Numbered from the stretch's first letter, positions 29,270-47,430 are shown. The stretch: DNA of 51,404 nt from Gammaproteobacteria bacterium (GCA_018676275.1 JABHFC010000311.1:1-51404); one strand, 5' to 3'. Numbers and translations are program-made. Notes: generated by a model from the sequence alone, not told the origin.

Positions 29270-30466
29270 ATGAACAAGGCTAAATCCTATATTGGACAAT
29301 CGGTAGGTCGATACACATTTAATGAGTTAGTCGGTAAGGGCTCGATTGGAGCCGTGTATAAAGCTTTTGACCAACGTCTGTTGCGTCCAGTCGCAATCAA
29401 AGTCTCTTCTCCTCATGCTGGCAATGAAGCCACACCAAATGATCGTATTTTACGTGAAGCACAAATTGTCGCGCGTGTTGAACACGCTAATATTGTTCCA
29501 ATATATGATGTCGTTGATCATGAAGGATCGGTTTTGATCGTTATGCGTTTATTGAAAGGACGGAATCTTGATGAACTCAAACAGCTTGTTGGCAAGCCTC
29601 TTGACGTCAATGAGGCTTTAAAAATAATGCACCAGGTAATGCTGGGAATGGATTACGCTCACAGCCGTGGCGTTATCCATGCTGATCTAAAACCGGGAAA
29701 TATTTTTGTTTCCAGTTCTAATGAGATTTTCATTCTTGATTTTGGCCTCGCGGCTGTACTCGAACTGGAAAAACCGGACAAAAGTAAAATGTACGGGACA
29801 CCTTTGTATATGTCACCTGAGCAATGTAATGGTATTTATCATGATGCCCGATCTGATATTTACTCACTTGGCCTTATCTTTTATGCGCTGATTACCGGTA
29901 GACACCCTTTTGCTGATGCTCAGTCAATGCAACAACTTTTGTTGTTTCAAATGGAGAAAATACCGGAAAGACCTGACGAAATTAACCCGGCAGTACCTGA
30001 GAACCTGTCTAATTGTGTTATGAGGGCTCTGGATAAAGATCCAACCAGGCGATTTAATTCATGTAGAGATTTTTTCCGTAAAATTGAAAGCTCATTGCAG
30101 ATTGTTGATACAGGGGAGTATAAGATTAAGGATTTGCGATGGGATCCGCGTGTAAATATGAATTTGCAGGCTCAACTGCAATTGCAAGATAGTGAAGAAA
30201 TATACACTGCTGAAATTACCGATCTATCTGTTAGTGGCGCCAGCATTCTGGTTCCGGTTTCTCTAAAATCTGGAACAAAGCTAAAAATTGATTTTGATAT
30301 CATGGAAGACAACAACCATGTGACAATGTCGAGTCAGGCTACAGTTTTATGGGAAGACAAAAAATCAGGTATGCAAATGTTTGAAGCCGGGTTAAGTTTC
30401 GATAGTCTTGAGAACCTGGATAAGCAATACCTTGGCTTTTATATACGTAATCGATTATTAGCCTGA
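29270..30466 (+). CDS. Ser/Thr protein kinase (Hanks type) fused to a C-terminal PilZ domain
   Basis: Kinase motifs: GKGSIGAVY (Gly loop), VAIKV (Lys), HADLKPGN (catalytic loop, non-RD), DFGLA, GTPLYMSPE. C-terminal ~110 aa: RWDPR (RxxxR), then 23 residues, then DLSVSG (DxSxxG), which are the two c-di-GMP-binding PilZ signatures. Confidence 0.8.
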   Translation: MNKAKSYIGQSVGRYTFNELVGKGSIGAVYKAFDQRLLRPVAIKVSSPHAGNEATPNDRILREAQIVARVEHANIVPIYDVVDHEGSVLIVMRLLKGRNLDELKQLVGKPLDVNEALKIMHQVMLGMDYAHSRGVIHADLKPGNIFVSSSNEIFILDFGLAAVLELEKPDKSKMYGTPLYMSPEQCNGIYHDARSDIYSLGLIFYALITGRHPFADAQSMQQLLLFQMEKIPERPDEINPAVPENLSNCVMRALDKDPTRRFNSCRDFFRKIESSLQIVDTGEYKIKDLRWDPRVNMNLQAQLQLQDSEEIYTAEITDLSVSGASILVPVSLKSGTKLKIDFDIMEDNNHVTMSSQATVLWEDKKSGMQMFEAGLSFDSLENLDKQYLGFYIRNRLLA

Positions 30467-33217: not shown

Positions 33218-33943
33218 CTACTTGGACAACCTTCGAACCAGCGATTTGAGGATTGTCAGACGTTCAATGCTTGAGGGATGCGAACCGCTGAAGCCTACCT
33301 GTCGTTTTGATATTTTATATAATTTTTCATGAACACGTACCGCACCGGCGGGATCATAGCCAGCTTCCAATGCCCAGATGGCACCCAGGTAATCTGATTC
33401 ACGTTCGTTATCGCGGGTATATTTGCTTGATGCCGCCGTAAATGTAGTTCTACTGGAATTTTCGATTGCCTTCTTTCTTTCTTTCATATGATCCAGCTTT
33501 AGGTGCGCAAGCTCATGCCCAATGATACCGGCAGCTGCATCTACATCCATACCTATTAGAGCTAACATGCCAAAGGTAAAACCAATTACATTTTGGTCAT
33601 CTTTTCCAACGGTGGCAAAGGCATTTGGTTCCTTGCCGTCCACCACAAATAATTCTGCATTAATTTCGGCTACTTCCTGAATCGCGACCATGGCAGAGTA
33701 AATCAGCAACAATTGTTTAGTTGCCATGGAGGCGATGACTCTGTCTCTTTTATCGCGTAATTGGACTACGTCGACTGGTGCTGAGGCAATATCTCTTATT
33801 CTCCAGGCCATTGGTTCTTCCGCTTTCGCTACACATGGTTGTAGAAAAAACAGGGAGAATAGAAGGAATATCGTGCTTATTTGAAATGTAGATTGGGAAT
33901 TCATTAACGTTCCATTATATGCAGATGTCATTTCAGACATCAT
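33218..33943 (-). CDS. M48-family zinc metalloprotease, secreted (last gene of the envelope operon)
   Basis: 241 aa with a signal peptide ending CVAKA. It has HELAHLKLDH (HExxH) and a downstream ERESDYLG. Its ATG overlaps the upstream stop (ATGA at 33940-33943). Confidence 0.75.
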   Translation of the reverse strand: MMSEMTSAYNGTLMNSQSTFQISTIFLLFSLFFLQPCVAKAEEPMAWRIRDIASAPVDVVQLRDKRDRVIASMATKQLLLIYSAMVAIQEVAEINAELFVVDGKEPNAFATVGKDDQNVIGFTFGMLALIGMDVDAAAGIIGHELAHLKLDHMKERKKAIENSSRTTFTAASSKYTRDNERESDYLGAIWALEAGYDPAGAVRVHEKLYKISKRQVGFSGSHPSSIERLTILKSLVRRLSK

Positions 33944-35334: not shown

Positions 35335-36327
35335 CTAGTTCAGGGCAACAAATGTACCACCATTTTTATGTGTTAGCTCGCGCATTAGTGTTGCAAAGCG
35401 TCTACTGGTGATCTGGAAGTGTTGTGGCGCCGTTGGCGGAATCGGAAAACCCACAGCATGTATTCGGATTTTGGTTTTACCATCAGCATCTTTCGGGTTA
35501 ATACGATCAACCACCTTGATCACTTCTTTTACCGAGCCTTCACCGGCAAATTCGTCGCCAAAAATGTAAATGCTTATCTTTTTGTTTGGATCGTAGAAGC
35601 TACGAATCGCCTGTGTAATACCCTCAACGGGGCTACTGTTACTGAAGGTACGCCAGCTACGTAAAGTACTGATTATCGCTCTGCGTCTACCCGGTGTGTC
35701 CGGTACCCATTTTCGACGATATTGAGAAAACAAATATGAGCCCATGTCACTCATTATTTGTATACCTTTTACCTGTGGATAGACATCAAGTGTAGCTATC
35801 AGTTGATTAATCATTTTTTCCCAGTTGGCGTTGACCATACTCCCGGAGGTATCAATGATAAAAATAATATATTCACTGTCCACCGGGATACCACCAACCA
35901 GACTGGTATTAATATCACCTTTCTGAGCCAGTAGACGTTGCATTTCTTCAGTTAACGACTGCAGTGCCAGTTCCAGTTCACCTGTGATAATAGCCTCAAC
36001 AGAAGAGTCTTCTGTTACATCTTCATATCGGGTTTTCGTGTATTTAAGTTCGGATCGCAATCGCGCTACTTTTTCATCCCACACAGAAATCTGTTCATGT
36101 TTGGCATTCAGGTCTCTGTTTAGTATTTTTGTTTCGCCGCGAATTTCAAACAACTGTGTCTGTAACTCGCGAACAACTCCATTAAGGGATAAATCACTGG
36201 TTTCAAGAATCGTAATGTCACCGGGTCTGGCGATCATCAGAAGCAGGATGATCGCGCCAAATCCACATGTAATGACATCCAGGAATGACAGATTAAAGGC
36301 ATCATTTTCGCGATCTTTCTTGCTCAC
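35335..36327 (-). CDS. ExbD/TolR-like TM anchor + coiled coil + VWA domain protein (paralog 2)
   Basis: A GTG start at 36327 overlaps the upstream TGA (GTGA), with a GGAGGA ribosome-binding site 6 nt upstream. The N-terminus VSKKDRENDAFNLSFLDVITCGFGAIILLLMI has a basic tail, then a TM helix with an embedded Asp. A ~100-aa heptad-rich segment follows, then a VWA domain with MIDAS motif IIFIIDTSGSM. Confidence 0.75.
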   Translation of the reverse strand: MSKKDRENDAFNLSFLDVITCGFGAIILLLMIARPGDITILETSDLSLNGVVRELQTQLFEIRGETKILNRDLNAKHEQISVWDEKVARLRSELKYTKTRYEDVTEDSSVEAIITGELELALQSLTEEMQRLLAQKGDINTSLVGGIPVDSEYIIFIIDTSGSMVNANWEKMINQLIATLDVYPQVKGIQIMSDMGSYLFSQYRRKWVPDTPGRRRAIISTLRSWRTFSNSSPVEGITQAIRSFYDPNKKISIYIFGDEFAGEGSVKEVIKVVDRINPKDADGKTKIRIHAVGFPIPPTAPQHFQITSRRFATLMRELTHKNGGTFVALN

Positions 36328-37412
36328 GGCCAATCCTCCGAAGGACTCATAAAGGAACCATTTGTGATCCAGGATAATTGCCAAAACGCTTTGGCAGCAA
36401 GAGGATCACCTTCCATTGGAAACATAATTACATTCACTGGAACGCCTTTTGGCAGGGTTTTTAGTGCCCTCTCGAACAGATTTAGACGTTGTTTTCCGGA
36501 AATAGTTGCGCCACGAGTACTTTTTGAGCCTTTGGTCGGTAATCCGTCGGTAATCAGGTAAATATTGTCAGGCAGTGGGCGGAGCTGGCTTGCTGCTTTA
36601 AAGGCATTTTCCAGGTTAGTACCTTTTTCCGGGACAGTGTTTTTCATATTCTTGATGGCCCGATCCAACTGCACTTTATCACCTACCTTTAGCCATTGGC
36701 CTTTGCTTTCAGGAATAGCTGCCCTGGTCTCAGTATTGAAGGTGTAAAGTTGAAATTGACTGTTATTGGGAAACTTTGCGCTTAGCCAGCTTACGGTGTT
36801 CAATGCCCTAAGCCATTTCGGTGCAGTGCGTTTTCTCTCGTCACGCATATTGCGTCGTCTTATTACATTGACAATGGAGCTGTCCAGCATGCTACCTGAG
36901 GTATCGAGTAGCACCAGTATATTTCTACCACCCATCCTCAGCCCGGTGACATAAGCCCGATTACCATCGCCGGCATATTTACGTGAGTCCTCACCGGTTT
37001 TATTCAAATCTGCGATAAGTTGCTGTTTTTCAGTTTCCAGTCTTTTGATGTCAGATTTTATTTTATTTAGCTTGCCATCTTTTCCATCGAGTACAAGTTC
37101 ATTGGTGAGTCCTTCTGTCAGGGAAATTTCCTCCATGATACGTCGAGCCAGACCTTGAGCTGTTACCAGTTTTTCATCAATATCCGAGATAGTATTGCGT
37201 ATTATCACCAGACCTTTTTCGCCTTCAAGAACTTCTTCTTCCAGCAATACTACTTCCGAACTTAGATCTGAATTCACAATAGGTTGTGGAACATTTGTAT
37301 CGACATTATGTTTAATAATCAAAAACAGAAGAACAGCAGCGCCAAAACCGCAGGACATGATATCCAGAAAGGAAAGACTAAAGGCAGATAGTTTGCGTCG
37401 ACTGAAGGACAT
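36324..37412 (-). CDS. ExbD/TolR-like TM anchor + coiled coil + VWA domain protein (paralog 1)
   Basis: 362 aa. MSFSRRKLSAFSLSFLDIMSCGFGAAVLLFLI has the same F-x-L-S-F-L-D-[IV]-x-x-C-G-F-G-A motif as the next gene. A coiled coil follows, then a VWA domain with ILVLLDTSGSM, GTNL and ITDGLP, which form the MIDAS triad. Confidence 0.75.
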   Translation of the reverse strand: MSFSRRKLSAFSLSFLDIMSCGFGAAVLLFLIIKHNVDTNVPQPIVNSDLSSEVVLLEEEVLEGEKGLVIIRNTISDIDEKLVTAQGLARRIMEEISLTEGLTNELVLDGKDGKLNKIKSDIKRLETEKQQLIADLNKTGEDSRKYAGDGNRAYVTGLRMGGRNILVLLDTSGSMLDSSIVNVIRRRNMRDERKRTAPKWLRALNTVSWLSAKFPNNSQFQLYTFNTETRAAIPESKGQWLKVGDKVQLDRAIKNMKNTVPEKGTNLENAFKAASQLRPLPDNIYLITDGLPTKGSKSTRGATISGKQRLNLFERALKTLPKGVPVNVIMFPMEGDPLAAKAFWQLSWITNGSFMSPSEDWP

Positions 37413-37413
37413 T

Positions 37414-38730
37414 TTAATCGTCTACGTGGATAAAAACGTACTCCGTCTTTGAGCCTGTGAAACTGATGATATCACCTGCCTGTACTTCCTCTGTATGTTG
37501 AGTTTGCCGGCCGTTTACAAATACAGCGAGCTCTCCATTAGTTTGTAACTTTACTTTCCCTTTCTGCTGGCTTACACAACAATGACCGGTAGAAGCATCA
37601 TCTATGCTGATAAGACCTGAAGCTGACAAATACACAGGACCTTCATGTAAAGCAAAAGCATTATGGCCATGTAAAATATGTGTAATGTTTTGTCCGGTGG
37701 AGTTTACAGTCCCGGTGTTTTCCAGATTTTGTTTCGGAGTCTCTGTAATTACAGGACTGCTTGTTGCTGGCAGGCTGGTAACGTAATTTGACCCAGAACC
37801 AGCAGAACGAATACTTTCCGCGTGAATCATGCAGGTTTCAAAAATATTGCTGGCCGGCAATATTTGCGCTTCATTTAATGAGTTTGTAAAGCCTGGTAGT
37901 TGTCCTGTTTGATTACTTATAAGGCAGCTATCATTGGCGTCTATAGCATCGGCAATTTTGTTATACAAAGGTTGCAGAACGTGCAACAGAGATTCGCGGG
38001 ATAGTTTTGCCTGGTGCTGGGTTTGCTGATACTGAATTTCCAGTGACACTTCGGAAAGAGTTTGCAGCGAATTCAGACAGGTCGGGATCTGATCATACAA
38101 GGCCTGCTCCGTCTCCGGATGATGCTGAGGATCAAAACGTGATTCTTTAATAAACAGATCGGCAATCAGGTGTGCGGTAGTGTCGTATATGGATGCCAGC
38201 CCGGCACCATCTATGGGGTGTACTGCGCCACGAACCACCTGATCAGTGACGCTAATTCTGGTTAATATCGTTTGATGTAAATGTGTATCAATATAAACGT
38301 AGTTTCCTTTCCCTGCAGTTGGCGCGACTGCAGCAATCGCAGAATCGACAAGCCCTACTATTGTTAAGGGACTTGCTTCAACAAGACCGAGCAAAAGGGC
38401 AAGTTGATCATTGCTGTAGGAGCCGGGTACAGCAATTATGACTTCTTCAGGTTTTCCTGCCTGATCATAGATTGCGAGTAGTTGAGCAAACGCGAGATCA
38501 GCATTATGTCGCGCATGAGTGCCCGGATATTGCAGCGGTTCCTGATTCAGATTTTTCCAGTACTTGTTATGTACAGCTCGAGGTTGAAGACGAGCCTGTC
38601 TGGCAGCAACTGAGCCTAACTCAATTTTATCTTTATCGATAAAAGCGTAACCGGGACTGCGTAAAACAACCTCCTTACCCTTTCCTACGCGGATTTCAAC
38701 ATCGTTCAGTTCAATAACACTGATTGTCAT
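37414..38730 (-). CDS. Cytoplasmic degenerate Hsp70/actin-fold (ASKHA)-like protein with an FHA-like C-terminal domain
   Basis: 438 aa with no TM helix. It is collinear with the DnaK nucleotide-binding domain but lacks the phosphate-binding signatures. VIELNDVEIRV sits in place of GIDLGTTNS. AVPGSYSNDQLALLLGLVEASPLTIVGLVDSAIAAV resembles TVPAYFNDAQRQAT..AG..V.RIINEPTAAA. YVYIDTHLHQTILTRISV sits in place of DLGGGTFDVS. The tail VSQQKGKVKLQTNGELAVFVNGRQ...VQAGDIISFTG is FHA-like but lacks the canonical SxxH. Confidence 0.5.
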   Translation of the reverse strand: MTISVIELNDVEIRVGKGKEVVLRSPGYAFIDKDKIELGSVAARQARLQPRAVHNKYWKNLNQEPLQYPGTHARHNADLAFAQLLAIYDQAGKPEEVIIAVPGSYSNDQLALLLGLVEASPLTIVGLVDSAIAAVAPTAGKGNYVYIDTHLHQTILTRISVTDQVVRGAVHPIDGAGLASIYDTTAHLIADLFIKESRFDPQHHPETEQALYDQIPTCLNSLQTLSEVSLEIQYQQTQHQAKLSRESLLHVLQPLYNKIADAIDANDSCLISNQTGQLPGFTNSLNEAQILPASNIFETCMIHAESIRSAGSGSNYVTSLPATSSPVITETPKQNLENTGTVNSTGQNITHILHGHNAFALHEGPVYLSASGLISIDDASTGHCCVSQQKGKVKLQTNGELAVFVNGRQTQHTEEVQAGDIISFTGSKTEYVFIHVDD

Positions 38731-38734
38731 TTTC

Positions 38735-39532
38735 TCAACGTACCTGCAGATGACGGATTAAATTAATATCGCAATAGTTTTGACTATCCAGAACCAGGCG
38801 TTCCTGCATTAGCTGCAACTGGTGCATCAGGAACATGATGAAAATACTGATGATTAAGGCGATAAAGGTAGAATTGAAAGCCACGCCCAGGCTGACAGTC
38901 ACACCAACAATATCTCCCTCTACCGCTTTGTGAGCCTGTCCCAATGCTTCGCCAATACCGCGTACGGTTCCAATAAAGCCAATAGAAGGTACCGCCCAGA
39001 TGATATATCTGATCATGGATAGCTCTGAATCCAGCCGATCAGATTCAGTATCGCAAATCTCCCTTACCGCTGTGGACACATCCTGAATATTGCGTGTAGA
39101 GCCGAAGCGTTGCAGGGCAGAAAGCAGGGCGCGGGGTAACAAAAATTCACGTTCTTCTTCAGGCAGCGTCTGCAGAGGTCGCGAATACTGACGTGCATCC
39201 TCCGGCAAAATGCTGGTGCCGGCGCTTACTTCGAGTAAAGATTTTGACAACAAACGCCTTTCTTCAATTACCAGCTTTGCCTTTAGAGCCATTATTGCAA
39301 ACACCCACAATGCCAGTACAAAGCAGGCTTCCTGTTCATAATCTTTGATAACTATAAAAATAGAACGTTTTACTTCATAAACTTCCCCGGCTTCCTGATG
39401 GACTCGTTGTTCTTCCAGAATAGCATCAGCATTGGGCCTGATTACTGTAACGTAAGCTGCATGCACAATAATAAAAGCAAAAAACAGAGCAAATATCTGA
39501 TAAAGGAAATCTGATAATGGATTATGTTTCAT
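38735..39532 (-). CDS. MotA/TolQ/ExbB-family proton-channel protein
   Basis: 265 aa with two N-terminal helices and a ~90-aa cytoplasmic loop. The family signature follows: IRYIIWAVPSIGFIGTVRGIGEALG ... VSLGVAFNSTFIALIISIFIMFLMHQL (compare P-x-x-G-[LMF]-x-G-T-V-x-G and the last TM helix of ExbB/TolQ/MotA). Confidence 0.75.
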   Translation of the reverse strand: MKHNPLSDFLYQIFALFFAFIIVHAAYVTVIRPNADAILEEQRVHQEAGEVYEVKRSIFIVIKDYEQEACFVLALWVFAIMALKAKLVIEERRLLSKSLLEVSAGTSILPEDARQYSRPLQTLPEEEREFLLPRALLSALQRFGSTRNIQDVSTAVREICDTESDRLDSELSMIRYIIWAVPSIGFIGTVRGIGEALGQAHKAVEGDIVGVTVSLGVAFNSTFIALIISIFIMFLMHQLQLMQERLVLDSQNYCDINLIRHLQVR

Positions 39533-39561: not shown

Positions 39562-39780
39562 CTAAATATCCACGGGAAAATCGACAGGAATGTCTTCTGA
39601 TAATTTTTCCGTCGGGTCAAAAGTATCTGGTGTAATTTCTTCCTTCTTTGCTTCTTTTACTTCTGTATTGTCTGTGGGCTTGATGACTTCAGTTCCTTCT
39701 TTTTCAGTTGTTTCTGTGTTTTCCTGCGCTTGTACGAATAGCAGGCCTGTTGCAAGGATTAGAAAGAAAATTAAGCGCAT
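39562..39780 (-). CDS. Small secreted acidic protein (72 aa)
   Basis: MRLIFFLILATGLLFVQAQ is a signal peptide, followed by a Glu/Thr/Lys-rich tail ending DIPVDFPVDI. The ATG at 39780 lies 4 nt after the upstream stop, with a GGAGTG ribosome-binding site. The track's longer version overlaps the upstream gene. Confidence 0.55.
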   Translation of the reverse strand: MRLIFFLILATGLLFVQAQENTETTEKEGTEVIKPTDNTEVKEAKKEEITPDTFDPTEKLSEDIPVDFPVDI

Positions 39781-39784
39781 CTCA

Positions 39785-41875
39785 TCACTCCAGGTACCGT
39801 GCAATACGAAAGCCGACATCATCGCGTTGCTTGGCATTATAGTCTCTGTATGACAAACGCAATTCGGTGACCGTTCCATGTGCCCAACTTGAACCCCTGA
39901 TCACGTGGAATTTACCAGTGTCGGGACCAAGGGGGTCAACTTCAGCTTTGTCAGTCGCTCCCAGTTGTATGTCGTAAAAGTCATTAACCCATTCTGCCAC
40001 ATTACCACCCATATCAAACAGACCTCTTTGGTTCGCAGGGAAACTACCAATCGGTGCGGAAACCATATGGCCATCATTGTAGTTACCAATTATTTTCCCC
40101 AGAAATCCAGCTGAAGAGGTATCGGCATAATTGCCGCTTTTTTTCGTAGGCGGTAATTGTTCTCCCCATGGATATTTCAACAAACTATTCTTGCCAGTAA
40201 CACGTGCTGACCAGGCCCATTCTGCTTCGGTTGGTAGTCGATACCCATTTGCCGAACGGTTGACACCACTTATTTTTTTATTTATTTCCTTATAGAAAGG
40301 CTCCAAAGATTCGGCTTTGCTTAACCAGTTACAATATGCCACTGCCTGTTCCCAGCTGACTTTCACCACAGGTTGTTTTTCCCCGTCCAGATTATTTCCC
40401 TGGACAGTGCCAGAGACATGACTTGCAGCATACTTTCTATATTGCTCATTACTAACCTCATGAGTACCGAGGTAAAAAGGGCGTTTCAAATCAATTTTGC
40501 GGAGGGTTTCATTGGCACGTCGGCCAGGTTCACGACGTGATGCGCCCATCGTAAATGCGGTTGGATGAAATAGTTTTAGAGTCTGTCCTGCGGTATTTGT
40601 ATAAATCGGCTTTATCTTTTCCAGTTTTGCCTGCCGATCACTTTTCAGGCTGACATTTACTTTCTCAGCAATACCGGCATGCGGTGATATTTTTGTTTTG
40701 AAGCTGACATAACCTGGTTTGCGAACTTCAATGCGATGTGGTTTGGCAGAAAGTTCCAGAACCTGATTTGCTTTATCTTTGGCAACACCATCTATAAATA
40801 GCTTCGCATCCTTTGGAGTAATATTAAATTCAACTTTTACCAGTTCCGGTGCAAGCTTGACGATTAGACGTTTTTCTTCACCGGAGTTAACACTTATTTT
40901 GCGGCTTGCAGATCTATAGCCCTGTTTAAAAAGGCGTATGGTACTTTCCTTGCCTGGTTTCAGCGCGAATTCAAGTGGCGTTAAGCCCTTGTATTCTCCA
41001 TCTGCTGTAGCATTGGCCCGGGGAGGATCTGATACAAGGAATAGCACGGCATCAACAGGTTGCAGTTTTACATCAGTCAATTCTAATGATTCGTTTGCAA
41101 CGACATTTATTTTATCCTGCCAAAGCTTAAAACCGGAAAGTTTAATTCCTATTTCATGATTGCCTTCAAGGATTTCAGCGTTAAATGGAGTTTGCCCCAG
41201 TAACTCACCATCCAGGAAAATATCTGCACCTTGTGGGTCTGAATCCATCGTTACTTCTGCCCAGGCAGGAACCAACTCAGTTGTGAAGCTTTGCTCTTTG
41301 TCCAGTCCTTCAATTATCAATTGCTGTTCAAATGGGAAATAACGTTCTGCGACAATACGCAATTGATGTTCGCCCGCTTCAATATCATGAATCAGTGAAG
41401 GTGTCCGTCCCGATAAGACATCATCAATAAATATCTCTGCGTCAGTCACTTTACCTGTCTGTACCTGCAGATGTCCGGGCAGGCGTTTCAGATCAAAGCT
41501 GAAACGTTGGTTTTGCTCCGTACTTATTGACAGGTTTTGACTCAGAGGATGATAGCCTTCAGCTTTGAGCATTAGATCATGTTCGCCTGAGATAAGCAGA
41601 TATCGGTCAGCCAGTTTCAATTTGAACAGGCTGCCAATTTTAATTTCGGCATTAACAGGATTGGTTTCGATATAGACGGCTTTTGCTGTAAACAGAAAGA
41701 CAGCCGTTGTCGCACAAATAAGAAAACCACTGATAATGAGAATAGTCTTACGGCTGATTTCAAATGATACAGCAGGCTTGTTTCCACTCAATGGTTCAAA
41801 TTTTACCGGTGCAATAGTTTCTGTACCGGCAGGTGGTGCCGTTGTATTTTTTTCGTTGTTATTATTGTTATCCAT
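39785..41875 (-). CDS. TM-anchored multi-PEGA-repeat protein with a C-terminal FGE-sulfatase (SUMF1-like) domain
   Basis: The ATG is at 41875; the track's first codon is a TTG. There is one TM helix (ILIISGFLICATTAVFLFTA). About 5 PEGA-like repeats follow (for example ADIFLDGELLGQTPF...LEGNHEIGIKLSGF, AKLFIDGV...HRIEVRKPGY). The FGE-sulfatase domain reads FTMGA, VKVSWEQAVAYCNWLS, YRLPTEAEWAWSAR, YPWG, GLFDMGGNVAEWVNDFY, IRGSSW...DVGFRIAR. No Cys is present where the catalytic FGE cysteines sit. Confidence 0.8.
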   Translation of the reverse strand: MDNNNNNEKNTTAPPAGTETIAPVKFEPLSGNKPAVSFEISRKTILIISGFLICATTAVFLFTAKAVYIETNPVNAEIKIGSLFKLKLADRYLLISGEHDLMLKAEGYHPLSQNLSISTEQNQRFSFDLKRLPGHLQVQTGKVTDAEIFIDDVLSGRTPSLIHDIEAGEHQLRIVAERYFPFEQQLIIEGLDKEQSFTTELVPAWAEVTMDSDPQGADIFLDGELLGQTPFNAEILEGNHEIGIKLSGFKLWQDKINVVANESLELTDVKLQPVDAVLFLVSDPPRANATADGEYKGLTPLEFALKPGKESTIRLFKQGYRSASRKISVNSGEEKRLIVKLAPELVKVEFNITPKDAKLFIDGVAKDKANQVLELSAKPHRIEVRKPGYVSFKTKISPHAGIAEKVNVSLKSDRQAKLEKIKPIYTNTAGQTLKLFHPTAFTMGASRREPGRRANETLRKIDLKRPFYLGTHEVSNEQYRKYAASHVSGTVQGNNLDGEKQPVVKVSWEQAVAYCNWLSKAESLEPFYKEINKKISGVNRSANGYRLPTEAEWAWSARVTGKNSLLKYPWGEQLPPTKKSGNYADTSSAGFLGKIIGNYNDGHMVSAPIGSFPANQRGLFDMGGNVAEWVNDFYDIQLGATDKAEVDPLGPDTGKFHVIRGSSWAHGTVTELRLSYRDYNAKQRDDVGFRIARYLE

Positions 41876-41983
41876 CAAATTATGACTCTTTAATAATCTG
41901 GTAATGAATCAGATAGAATTTCATACTTATAGTGACGGAATCTGCAGGTCCATCATGACTTCTCTATCCCTGCAAAACAGACC

Positions 41984-45788: not shown

Positions 45789-47090
45789 TTATTCAGTGAA
45801 TACATAACGCAGACTAACACCAGTGGTTATAACGGGCTTGCCATTTTCATATCTTGGCCGAAACTTTGTTGAGGCAATACTTCTTTTGGCCCGACGTTGA
45901 AAAGATATGTTGTCACTGGGGTTAGATTCTAATATTTGTATATTTCGTGCACTGCCCGAAGCGCTGACATCAAACGAAGCTACCACGTAGCTTGGGTTTT
46001 CTTCTACGATATCAATCTGATTTTGTATCGGTAGACGAATGGCAGGCAAAGTTCTTGGTTGTCCAAATAAAACATCTATCTTCTGTTGATCGAAGCCTTC
46101 GCTATCCAGTAAATCATATGCCTGCTGATAAGTCGTGGCTGCGCTGTTTCTCTTATTAAAAAGCAAATACCAGTCCCCCAGATGGGTTAATGCAATTGCC
46201 TGGGTATCCACTGGCAAAATAGGATTGGCGGTATGAATCTCAATTATACGATTCATAGCCTTTTTACCTTTTGCGAAACTTTGCATAATCAGGTCTTCTC
46301 GAGCTCGCTGTTGTTGCAGGGCTCGACGGCGATCCGAGTTTCTAAAACCCATTCGTATATCATCGAAATCTTCAGCCCCGCTAACCCGGCTGGCGATCTG
46401 ATAATTTGTCAGGGCAATACCGTAAAGGGCATTAATCAGTCTTATGTCGTACTGACCATTTGTTGTTTCAATAATTTTGACGGCTTTATTGTATAGATTT
46501 TCCGCATCCACCAGGTGAGAAAAGGATTCGCTGGCTGGCAGTATTTCATATGCTTTCAAGTGCCAACGACCAATACGATCAATTACGTCAAGTAATTCAG
46601 TGTTATTCTCTCCGTAATGTCGTTTACTAATCCAGAAGAGGTTATGGAAGTTTTTATTCAGATTCTTCCAGTCTTTAAGTTTGGTGTTACTTTCGATCAT
46701 TTTTTCCAGGATGGAAATCTGGTCAAGGCTATACAATCCGTCATTAACACGACTTATATGCATTGAACGTTCGAATGCATCTATGGCGTTCTTATGTAGT
46801 TCCATTGACTGGTAGGTAGCGCCCAGACTTAGAAGCACTTCGGAAAGTTGTACCTGATAGACACCTCCGGTGCTCTGCAGCTGGTCTATTAGTTCGTTAT
46901 AATTTTGAATACTGCGCTTCTGTTCTGCAGTCATTTCCTTTTTGATTACTTCGACTTCGACTTGCGAAGCTTCGATTTCCGTCTGCAGTGATTCCGCCGG
47001 CGAGGAAACATCGGTCGCCGCCAGGCCAGCCATATTGCAAACCAATAAAGCTGAAACAGAGATAAAAAGGGTACGAAGAGTGACTATCAT
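45789..47090 (-). CDS. Secreted or signal-anchored helical-repeat protein ending in a TonB_C-like domain (first gene of the operon)
   Basis: The ATG at 47090 has an AGGAA ribosome-binding site 5 nt upstream and gives MIVTLRTLFISVSALLVCNMAGLAA. The centre is TPR-like. The last ~70 aa, YVVASFDVSASGSARNIQILESNPSDNISFQRRAKRSIASTKFRPRYENGKPVITTGVSLRYVF, follow the TonB C-terminal pattern (V.F.V...G.v.n..i..S......d.aa..a....kF.P....G.pv......i.f). Confidence 0.55.
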   Translation of the reverse strand: MIVTLRTLFISVSALLVCNMAGLAATDVSSPAESLQTEIEASQVEVEVIKKEMTAEQKRSIQNYNELIDQLQSTGGVYQVQLSEVLLSLGATYQSMELHKNAIDAFERSMHISRVNDGLYSLDQISILEKMIESNTKLKDWKNLNKNFHNLFWISKRHYGENNTELLDVIDRIGRWHLKAYEILPASESFSHLVDAENLYNKAVKIIETTNGQYDIRLINALYGIALTNYQIASRVSGAEDFDDIRMGFRNSDRRRALQQQRAREDLIMQSFAKGKKAMNRIIEIHTANPILPVDTQAIALTHLGDWYLLFNKRNSAATTYQQAYDLLDSEGFDQQKIDVLFGQPRTLPAIRLPIQNQIDIVEENPSYVVASFDVSASGSARNIQILESNPSDNISFQRRAKRSIASTKFRPRYENGKPVITTGVSLRYVFTE

Positions 47091-47430
47091 TAATTTCCTG
47101 TTACATTGTATAAAGTGTAAAGAGCCAGCAATAATTTGAGTGATAATCTGTGTTAATGTTCCTGTCAGATCAATGAATAGCTGAATTTTCCCTGACAAAG
47201 CAAAAAATGTATCTGATTCATCGCATCTATTATCAAGTATCCATTTAATAAGTATAGAATTTTACCGGAATTAAATAAGCAGGAATGTGATAGAAGTATG
47301 AAATTTATTACATAATTGCTCGAACGGCTGACAATGGGGTCAATTTGAGGAAAAAGTGTCCAGTTCAGGTTTTCAGTAACTCAAAATAAATAATGGCACT
47401 AAAGGGTAGTTTTTTCGGATCAGGGCAATA

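Follow-up and report, generated by a model that had tools for sequence, protein, structure and literature searches.

Tandem VWA-domain proteins with an invariant Asp-containing transmembrane helix as candidate axle subunits of a MotA/TolQ-type motor in a gammaproteobacterium

B-type subunits of the ExbD/TolR kind have an Asp of the essential type about 15-25 residues from the N-terminus and a short basic cytoplasmic tail. In the Myxococcus gliding motor, a TolQ/MotA-type channel is combined with two different B-type subunits (AglQ/AglS with AglR), and the wider Agl-Glt machinery includes TPR proteins, TonB_C/TolA-like proteins, lipoproteins and a VWA protein. GldL/GldM (PorL/PorM) form a 5:2 motor, in which a long periplasmic extension of the B-type subunit reaches a protein of the FGE-sulfatase fold. 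In this work we analysed a stretch of 51,404 nucleotides from a gammaproteobacterium (GCA_018676275.1, JABHFC010000311.1:1-51404; hereafter, the window), in which two adjacent genes, called here paralogs 1 and 2, encode proteins that join an Asp-containing N-terminal transmembrane (TM) helix, through a helical stalk, to a VWA domain. As judged from sequence comparisons, these proteins probably serve as the two non-identical axle (B-type) subunits of a 5:2 motor that is driven by protons and would also contain the pentamer of a MotA-like protein encoded nearby (Table 1).

This very arrangement has been proposed in a genome analysis supported by AlphaFold 3 models (PMC12204202, Mol Biol Evol 2025), which introduced the 'TPH-vWA' family, whose members have one N-terminal helix, bearing a conserved Asp, and a C-terminal vWA fold. 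According to the same study, the TPH-vWA genes co-occur tightly with tolQ, have no neighbouring tolR, exbD or motB and mostly form heterologous pairs; in the models, the paired Asp residues are positioned within the Thr ring of a TolQ-like pentamer. The family seed derives from Idiomarina loihiensis, and members were reported mainly in Proteobacteria and Verrucomicrobia. A separate, peripheral vWA family was also described (PMC12204202), carrying an SHLS motif with a conserved His and encoded beside tolQ and tolR-like genes. The first-pass annotation of the window was aware of no B subunit with a VWA output domain; the idea of a VWA-tipped axle had, in fact, already been proposed in 2025, and the window pair adds a new member to the proposed family.

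Each of the two window proteins consists of a basic tail, a TM helix with an Asp at position 17, a heptad-type stalk and a VWA domain. This tandem architecture had been recognized in the first-pass annotation, which also reported both N-termini and the shared helix motif correctly. Over their whole length the paralogs are 22% identical (BLASTP, E 6e-13), and 15 of the 25 residues of the TM helix, counted by eye, are the same in both. The two genes are translationally coupled, with stops and starts that overlap or abut: the ATG of paralog 1 lies one base past the TAA of the upstream gene, while the GTG of paralog 2 (36327-36325) overlaps the TGA of paralog 1 in a GTGA string and is preceded, about 7 nt upstream, by GGAGGA. 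Orthologs of both paralogs share their start positions with the window genes. Based on the ortholog starts, this putative ribosome binding site and the stop-start overlap, we assigned the start of paralog 2 to the GTG at 36327 and dismissed a longer mechanical open reading frame (ORF) reaching 36384.

The helices of both paralogs conform to the motif F-[SN]-L-S-F-L-D-[IV]-x-x-C-G-F-G-A. The conservation of this segment was assessed in a larger protein collection and in 80 genome loci, nearly all of which belong to uncultured marine Gammaproteobacteria or Pseudomonadales. The Asp and the F-L-D-x4-C-G-F-G-A string are invariant in 80/80 orthologs of paralog 1 and in 80/80 orthologs of paralog 2, among which overall identity drops to about 43%; at such divergence, the invariance of the motif is far beyond chance. 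In a 90%-clustered collection, more than 5400 homologs of paralog 1 were retrieved; at 50% identity the matches fall into 1372 clusters, of which 296 lie below 1e-30. The 150 best representatives of these clusters include 118 sequences with an intact N-terminus, and the Asp and a G-[FL]-G-[AS] string are present in every one of the 118, down to 32% identity; the other 32 are fragments or have mis-called starts, many of the latter at a Met two residues past the Asp. Conservation of the Asp and of the CGFGA segment in orthologs, a test set beforehand by the first-pass annotation, was thus observed in 160/160 orthologs as well as in these 118 representatives. The TM helix is, in addition, the best-conserved segment of both proteins, with a mean majority fraction of 0.93 in paralog 1 (stalk 0.55, VWA domain 0.70) and of 0.91 in paralog 2; across the two paralogs, the stalk ranges from 0.55 to 0.61 and the VWA domain from 0.70 to 0.76.

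The distribution of charges around the helix is also informative. In the representatives, Lys and Arg amount to 3.4 in the N-terminal tail of about 11 residues versus 1.6 in the 15 residues past the helix, the net charge is +2.8 versus -1.2, and the positive-inside rule is obeyed by 100/118 sequences. This bias supports the predicted topology with a cytoplasmic N-terminus and periplasmic VWA domains, in agreement with the orientation deduced earlier from the basic tail.

The gene two positions upstream of paralog 1 had been read as MotA-like. Its product matches Pfam MotA_ExbB (PF01618) with 54 bits against a cut-off of 22.9 (E 1.9e-14), and a single gene (37414-38730) separates it from paralog 1. 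Since the product scores below the NCBIfam cut-offs set specifically for TolQ and ExbB, it is neither TolQ nor ExbB proper. The alignment with E. coli TolQ is weak overall (E 0.5) and places T189 and T222 on TolQ T145 and T178; the equivalents of these two threonines are invariant in 75/75 MotA-like orthologs. In 77 of the 80 loci the VWA pair has a MotA_ExbB gene in its company, invariably on one and the same side; the loci devoid of it are mostly contig ends, and the checked loci are colinear. Pfam searches of the cluster proteins and of the larger ORFs of the window detected no ExbD (PF02472), TolR or MotB, and none was found by tblastn in the window and in 88 loci using E. coli ExbD and TolR as queries (of the two queries, that of ExbD was checked against PDB 6tyi). 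The VWA proteins themselves gave no Pfam match to PF02472, MotB_plug or OmpA.

Both VWA paralogs are present in 80/80 loci. Moreover, in the distant locus L081, a relative at 32% identity, the MotA gene and an Hsp70-like gene are followed by two VWA genes, of which the first best matches paralog 1 of the window and the second paralog 2; the MotA-VWA-VWA order is also kept in the loci L084 and L086. Because both copies are retained in a fixed order at 32% identity, the duplication must be old, and an ancient, retained pair of paralogs fits what an obligate heterodimer would predict. All together, these comparisons, among them those aimed at the refuting conditions named in the first-pass annotation, lend consistent, though indirect, support to the heterodimeric B-subunit interpretation put forward there.

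The regions that would lie outside the membrane were then analysed through structure prediction and profile searches. An AlphaFold2 model of paralog 1, built as a single chain on 45 homologs, shows a TM helix, long helices at residues 50-102 and 111-138 and no proline-rich linker. A crude a/d periodicity score is clearly elevated in the paralog 1 stalk (0.80 versus 0.68 at the 95th percentile of shuffles) and marginally so in that of paralog 2 (0.72 versus 0.70). The heptad-like stretch of about 100 residues noted earlier is therefore well sustained in paralog 1 and borderline in paralog 2. Following the stalk, paralog 1 exceeds the Pfam gathering scores of VWA_2 (34.0 versus 27) and VWA (25.3 versus 23.8), and the best Foldseek matches of its model are VWA domains of BatB-like proteins (4jdu, 3ibs), CLCA1 and ITIH1, with E values from 4e-7 to 1e-5. 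The replacement of the periplasmic ExbD/TolR domain by a VWA module, as formerly suggested, is thus consistent with both the model and the structural matches.

The residues of the metal-ion-dependent adhesion site (MIDAS) of paralog 1 (Table 1) are conserved in 81 sequences. The VWA domain of paralog 2 remains below the Pfam cut-off (18.8 versus 23.8), yet is homologous to that of paralog 1; it keeps D159-T-S-G-S and D258, and an Ile is aligned at the Thr position. Hence, the intact MIDAS previously attributed to both proteins, with the T and D named for paralog 1, holds in full for paralog 1, while in paralog 2 the DTSGS string and the Asp are maintained and the Thr is not. We also observed that paralog 1 terminates with a nearly invariant PS-x-D-W-P-COOH sequence (36324-36350): DWP ends 102/150 of the 50%-cluster representatives and x-W-P about 120/150, whereas paralog-2-type proteins have no C-terminal DWP. 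One may speculate that other proteins, such as the TPR proteins encoded in the cluster, use this tail as a docking peptide.

Table 1. Positions of the VWA gene pair, its domains and the surrounding genes, counted from the first nucleotide of the window (aa, amino acids; NBD, nucleotide-binding domain; pLDDT, predicted local distance difference test)
Feature	Coordinates	Strand	Basis and remarks
TPR + TonB_C-domain protein	45789..47198	minus	start uncertain; 49/80 loci; first cluster gene
Ser/Gly/Gln-rich lipoprotein, 308 aa	44848..45774	minus	translation; 54/80 loci
Conserved lipoprotein, 395 aa, glycine-zipper-like C-terminal segment	43645..44832	minus	lipobox in translation; 63/80 loci
TM-anchored TPR protein, 518 aa	41984..43540	minus	Pfam TPR; 67/80 loci and distant L081
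TM-anchored protein, 5 PEGA repeats + FGE-sulfatase (GldK/PorK-like) domain	39785..41878	minus	72/80 loci; L084, L086
MotA/TolQ/ExbB-type channel protein, 265 aa, putative pentameric A subunit	38735..39532	minus	Pfam MotA_ExbB
Cytoplasmic Hsp70-NBD-like + FHA-like protein, 438 aa	37414..38730	minus	between MotA-like gene and VWA pair; 78/80 loci
VWA paralog 1, 362 aa	36324..37412	minus	ATG start; basic tail, transpore-type TM helix, helical stalk, VWA domain, C-terminal DWP
TM helix, paralog 1, residues 9-33	37314..37388	minus	Asp17 codon 37362-37364; motif FSLSFLDIMSCGFGA
Heptad-type helical stalk, paralog 1, about residues 48-143	36984..37271	minus	AlphaFold2 helices, heptad periodicity
VWA domain, paralog 1, about residues 160-355	36348..36935	minus	pLDDT ~90; MIDAS D170-x-S172-x-S174, T265, D289
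VWA paralog 2, 330 aa	35335..36327	minus	GTG start; architecture as paralog 1; MIDAS without Thr
TM helix, paralog 2, residues 9-33	36229..36303	minus	Asp17 codon 36277-36279; motif FNLSFLDVITCGFGA
Conserved lipoprotein, 237 aa	34620..35333	minus	directly downstream of VWA pair; 71/80 loci
Conserved lipoprotein, 227 aa	33940..34623	minus	translation; 71/80 loci
M48-family metallopeptidase, loosely associated	33218..33943	minus	Pfam Peptidase_M48 1.9e-15; 11/80 close loci

In related loci, the VWA pair is part of a colinear cluster of 11 genes, which encode, in this order, the TPR + TonB_C protein, two lipoproteins, the TPR protein, the PEGA/FGE protein, the MotA-like protein, a 438-aa protein, the two VWA paralogs and two more lipoproteins. 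The product of the first gene matches Pfam TPR_12 (4.5e-12) and TonB_C (27.5 bits versus a cut-off of 24.6), and shows a signal-peptide-like segment starting from an internal Met, not a TonB-type anchor; a TonB_C gene is also found near the distant cluster L081. The PEGA/FGE protein matches Pfam PEGA (4.8e-48) and FGE-sulfatase (4.2e-43), its best NCBIfam match being GldK/PorK (TIGR03525; E 7e-34, 117.8 bits versus a cut-off of 350). Between the PEGA/FGE and MotA-like genes, the window carries a small ORF (39562-39879, minus strand) that, read from an internal Met, looks like a signal peptide joined to an acidic peptide, which evolves fast and ends in DFPVDI. This ORF has a tblastn match in 12/80 loci, and a short gene fills the same slot elsewhere.

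The 438-aa protein is 100% identical to HN764_12500 from a marine Gammaproteobacteria MAG, and Elongatibacter sediminis also has a homolog. It has no Pfam match, and a sequence search of the PDB returned nothing. Its AlphaFold2 model, with a pLDDT of 90, retrieves through Foldseek the NBD of Hsp70/BiP/DnaK (E ~1e-17), followed by a beta-sandwich at the place where homologs carry Pfam FHA. Inspected by eye, the phosphate-binding loops of the Hsp70 fold look degenerate, with IELND in place of DLGTT, and for this reason the protein may be a pseudo-ATPase. The gene is missing from L086, where MotA-VWA-VWA and PEGA/FGE persist, and is therefore frequent yet not obligatory.

M48 genes also lie beside the distant clusters L081 and L084. 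A Ser/Thr kinase gene, which heads the cluster, a sigma-70 factor gene and a gene for a separate FHA protein flank L084. In the window, a different Ser/Thr kinase, fused to a C-terminal PilZ (cyclic di-GMP-binding) domain, is encoded on the plus strand at 29270-30466, about 3 kb from the cluster; none of the 80 related loci was found to have a counterpart of it. The remaining part of the window is ordinary chromosome, including genes for PutA, NAD-glutamate dehydrogenase, an RND efflux pump, electron transfer flavoprotein (ETF), GGDEF proteins and Lrp-type regulators. PADLOC defence models gave nothing meaningful on the cluster; a Zorya-type defence reading is, accordingly, without profile support.

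Starting from these data, a working model of the motor can be outlined. The N-terminal helix of each VWA protein would enter the pore of the MotA-like pentamer, placing Asp17 beside the rings formed by Thr189 and Thr222, and the protonation and deprotonation of the two Asp17 residues would drive the rotation of pentamer and dimer relative to each other. The small residues of C-G-F-G-A, below the Asp, could permit the packing of the two helices. Outside the membrane, both chains would continue for about 90-100 residues as a helical stalk, probably a coiled coil, whose length comes to roughly 13 nm at a helical rise of 1.5 A per residue. At the end of this stalk would sit two non-identical periplasmic VWA heads, that of paralog 1 with a complete MIDAS and the DWP tail, that of paralog 2 with a reduced site. 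These heads may bind envelope partners encoded in the cluster, namely the PEGA/FGE-sulfatase, TPR and TonB_C proteins and the lipoproteins, and in this way proton flux would generate movement or force within the outer envelope. On the cytoplasmic side, the Hsp70-NBD/FHA-like protein is probably a regulator or a scaffold of the motor.

More tentatively, and with somewhat less than even confidence, we propose that this motor is the engine of an undescribed trans-envelope machine, widespread in uncultured marine Gammaproteobacteria and with relatives in metagenomes, having its own fixed parts list and a distinct output. The parts would be the PEGA/FGE protein, the TPR and TonB_C/TPR proteins, four lipoproteins and, as a cytoplasmic regulator, the degenerate Hsp70-NBD/FHA-like protein; coupling would take place at the VWA heads and at the DWP tail of paralog 1; and the output would differ from Ton import, Tol maintenance, flagellar rotation, gliding or type IX secretion (T9SS), and Zorya defence.

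Some observations weigh against assigning the two proteins to the axle of the motor. The alignment of their N-termini with known B subunits, which the first-pass annotation had suggested as a check, turned out negative or insignificant. Specifically, when the first 60 residues were scanned with Pfam at E <= 10, no ExbD, TolR or MotB match appeared, and an N-terminal family profile of 16 sequences, run against PDB sequences at E <= 10, retrieved no B subunit. In an hhalign comparison with the ExbD/TolR helices, Asp falls on Asp with a probability of 0.5%, a P of 0.066 and a 4-residue gap. In addition, the AlphaFold2 monomer of paralog 1 is modelled with low confidence along the TM helix and the stalk, the structural support consists of a published prediction for another species that is linked to the window by description, and the loci were gathered via the VWA protein, so that co-occurrence is seen from one side. 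Since the similarity of the helices is statistically insignificant, our claim is that the window proteins work like B subunits, not that they are members of the ExbD/TolR family. The sole PDB match of the N-terminal profile, NDUFB4, was due to the CGFG string and was judged a chance hit.

Other explanations of the same locus were considered. The VWA proteins might be passive anchors, that is, periplasmic adhesion or scaffold proteins of the BatA/BatB kind that are merely co-expressed with a MotA-like channel having another partner or none. The window proteins do share with BatA/BatB an N-terminal membrane anchor joined to a VWA domain, their closest solved VWA structures are the BatB-like 4jdu and 3ibs, and a helix devoid of significant similarity to ExbD/TolR/MotB would be in keeping with a simple anchor. 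We nevertheless hold this explanation to be quite unlikely. The mid-helix Asp is invariant family-wide, and no other segment of the proteins is as well conserved as the helix, the opposite of what is expected of an anchor, which argues against a passive role. Moreover, no MoxR ATPase or DUF58 gene, as present in the BatA/BatB aerotolerance operons, was found by Pfam among the cluster proteins, and no B-subunit gene that could serve the MotA-like protein was found nearby in the window and the 88 loci. To our knowledge, BatA and BatB are without a conserved Asp-containing helix, a long stalk and a MotA-type partner, and we know of no MotA/ExbB/TolQ-type protein that works without a B subunit. 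Least plausible, and in our opinion highly improbable, is an arrangement in which the VWA proteins are TonB/TolA-like transducers located outside the pentamer, with a housekeeping ExbD/TolR protein encoded elsewhere acting as the axle. A peripheral vWA family of this type has been described (PMC12204202) and the cluster does encode a TonB_C-domain protein; that family, however, is marked by the His of the SHLS motif and by tolR-like neighbours, while neither window helix contains a His and both have an Asp instead. The helical nature of the stalk, the missing proline-rich linker and the failure to detect tolR or exbD in the 88 loci further argue against such a peripheral position.

A complex between the MotA-like and VWA proteins could also form and be used for signalling: a ligand bound at the VWA heads would gate ion flow or rotation, and the Hsp70-NBD/FHA-like protein would provide the readout in the cytoplasm, involving in some relatives a Ser/Thr kinase, with a logic comparable to that of the Zorya ZorAB sensor-motor. 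The Hsp70-NBD/FHA-like gene lies within the core in 78/80 loci and recurs in distant relatives, which is compatible with this scheme, as are the kinase, sigma-70 and FHA genes beside L084 and the kinase-PilZ gene 3 kb from the window cluster. We regard it as unlikely, because the Hsp70/FHA gene is absent from L086 although MotA-VWA-VWA remains, the window kinase is without a counterpart in the 80 related loci, and the canonical phosphothreonine-binding residues of FHA domains are not obvious, by eye, in the 438-aa protein. Furthermore, the long stalk and the many periplasmic and lipoprotein partners suit a mechanical trans-envelope role at least equally well.

The axle interpretation, by contrast with these alternatives, places the window pair next to the TPH-vWA family, to which it was assigned by matching the published description and not by sequence. 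Like TPH-vWA members, the window proteins combine an Asp-containing helix, without the SHLS-His motif, with a vWA fold, and their genes occur as a heterologous pair; they are also linked to a MotA/tolQ-like gene with a conserved Thr ring in the partner, with no tolR, exbD or motB nearby. A term search of the main text of PMC12204202 returned no Hsp70/DnaK, PEGA or sulfatase, and the lone 'FHA' match was to the unrelated FhaC. Thus, the wider 11-gene cluster, the Hsp70-NBD/FHA-like gene, the PEGA/FGE partner and the DWP terminus do not appear to be covered by that study. A literature search found no further paper on the MotA-like/VWA pair system, which is not covered by the eLife 2020 paper on vWA conflict systems or by the mBio 2025 MotAB survey. 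The family is large and known from genomes and models, and the wider cluster supplies candidates for the target of the motor; clean point mutations, in turn, could be aimed at the invariant Asp, at both Thr rings, at the MIDAS and at the DWP tail.

In conclusion, the window pair can be set beside the known ion-driven motors. It resembles ExbD/TolR in the basic tail, the single Asp-containing helix with its [FL]-[LI]-D-[VI] context, the N-in orientation and the proximity to a gene of the MotA/ExbB/TolQ type, whose product retains the pore threonines; the ExbD helix pattern on which this comparison was originally based agrees with chain Y of PDB 6tyi. It differs from ExbD/TolR in having a helical stalk and a VWA domain in place of the periplasmic alpha/beta domain, in showing no detectable sequence homology to PF02472, in the C-G-F-G-A segment, which has no counterpart in ExbD/TolR, and in consisting of two distinct paralogs, ExbD/TolR being homodimers. 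Compared with MotB/PomB, the pair has, according to Pfam, neither the plug helix nor the OmpA-like peptidoglycan-binding domain.

The combination of a channel with two different B-type subunits, as well as the similar wider parts, recalls AglQ/AglS/AglR; the parallel is thematic, and no Glt homologs were identified in the window analysis, in which the likeness to Agl-Glt was not tested by sequence. AglQ/AglS-type subunits are, however, small TolR-like proteins, while the putative axle proteins of the window bear VWA domains. In Myxococcus the VWA domain resides on a separate protein, CglB, described as an outer-membrane lipoprotein (PMC9946355), whereas in the window it is fused to the axle helix. 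A further thematic parallel with GldL/GldM/GldK is provided by the FGE-sulfatase protein of the cluster, whose best NCBIfam match is GldK/PorK; unlike GldK/PorK, it is TM-anchored with five PEGA repeats and is not a lipoprotein, and, unlike the T9SS, the cluster has no GldL/M/N homologs, its A subunit being a member of Pfam MotA_ExbB. If the proposed motor is real, the axle itself carries an adhesion domain and a separate TonB/TolA-like transducer would therefore be unneeded. Such a machine would represent a sixth output of 5:2 ion-driven motors, besides the flagellar, Ton, Tol, gliding/T9SS and Zorya systems.

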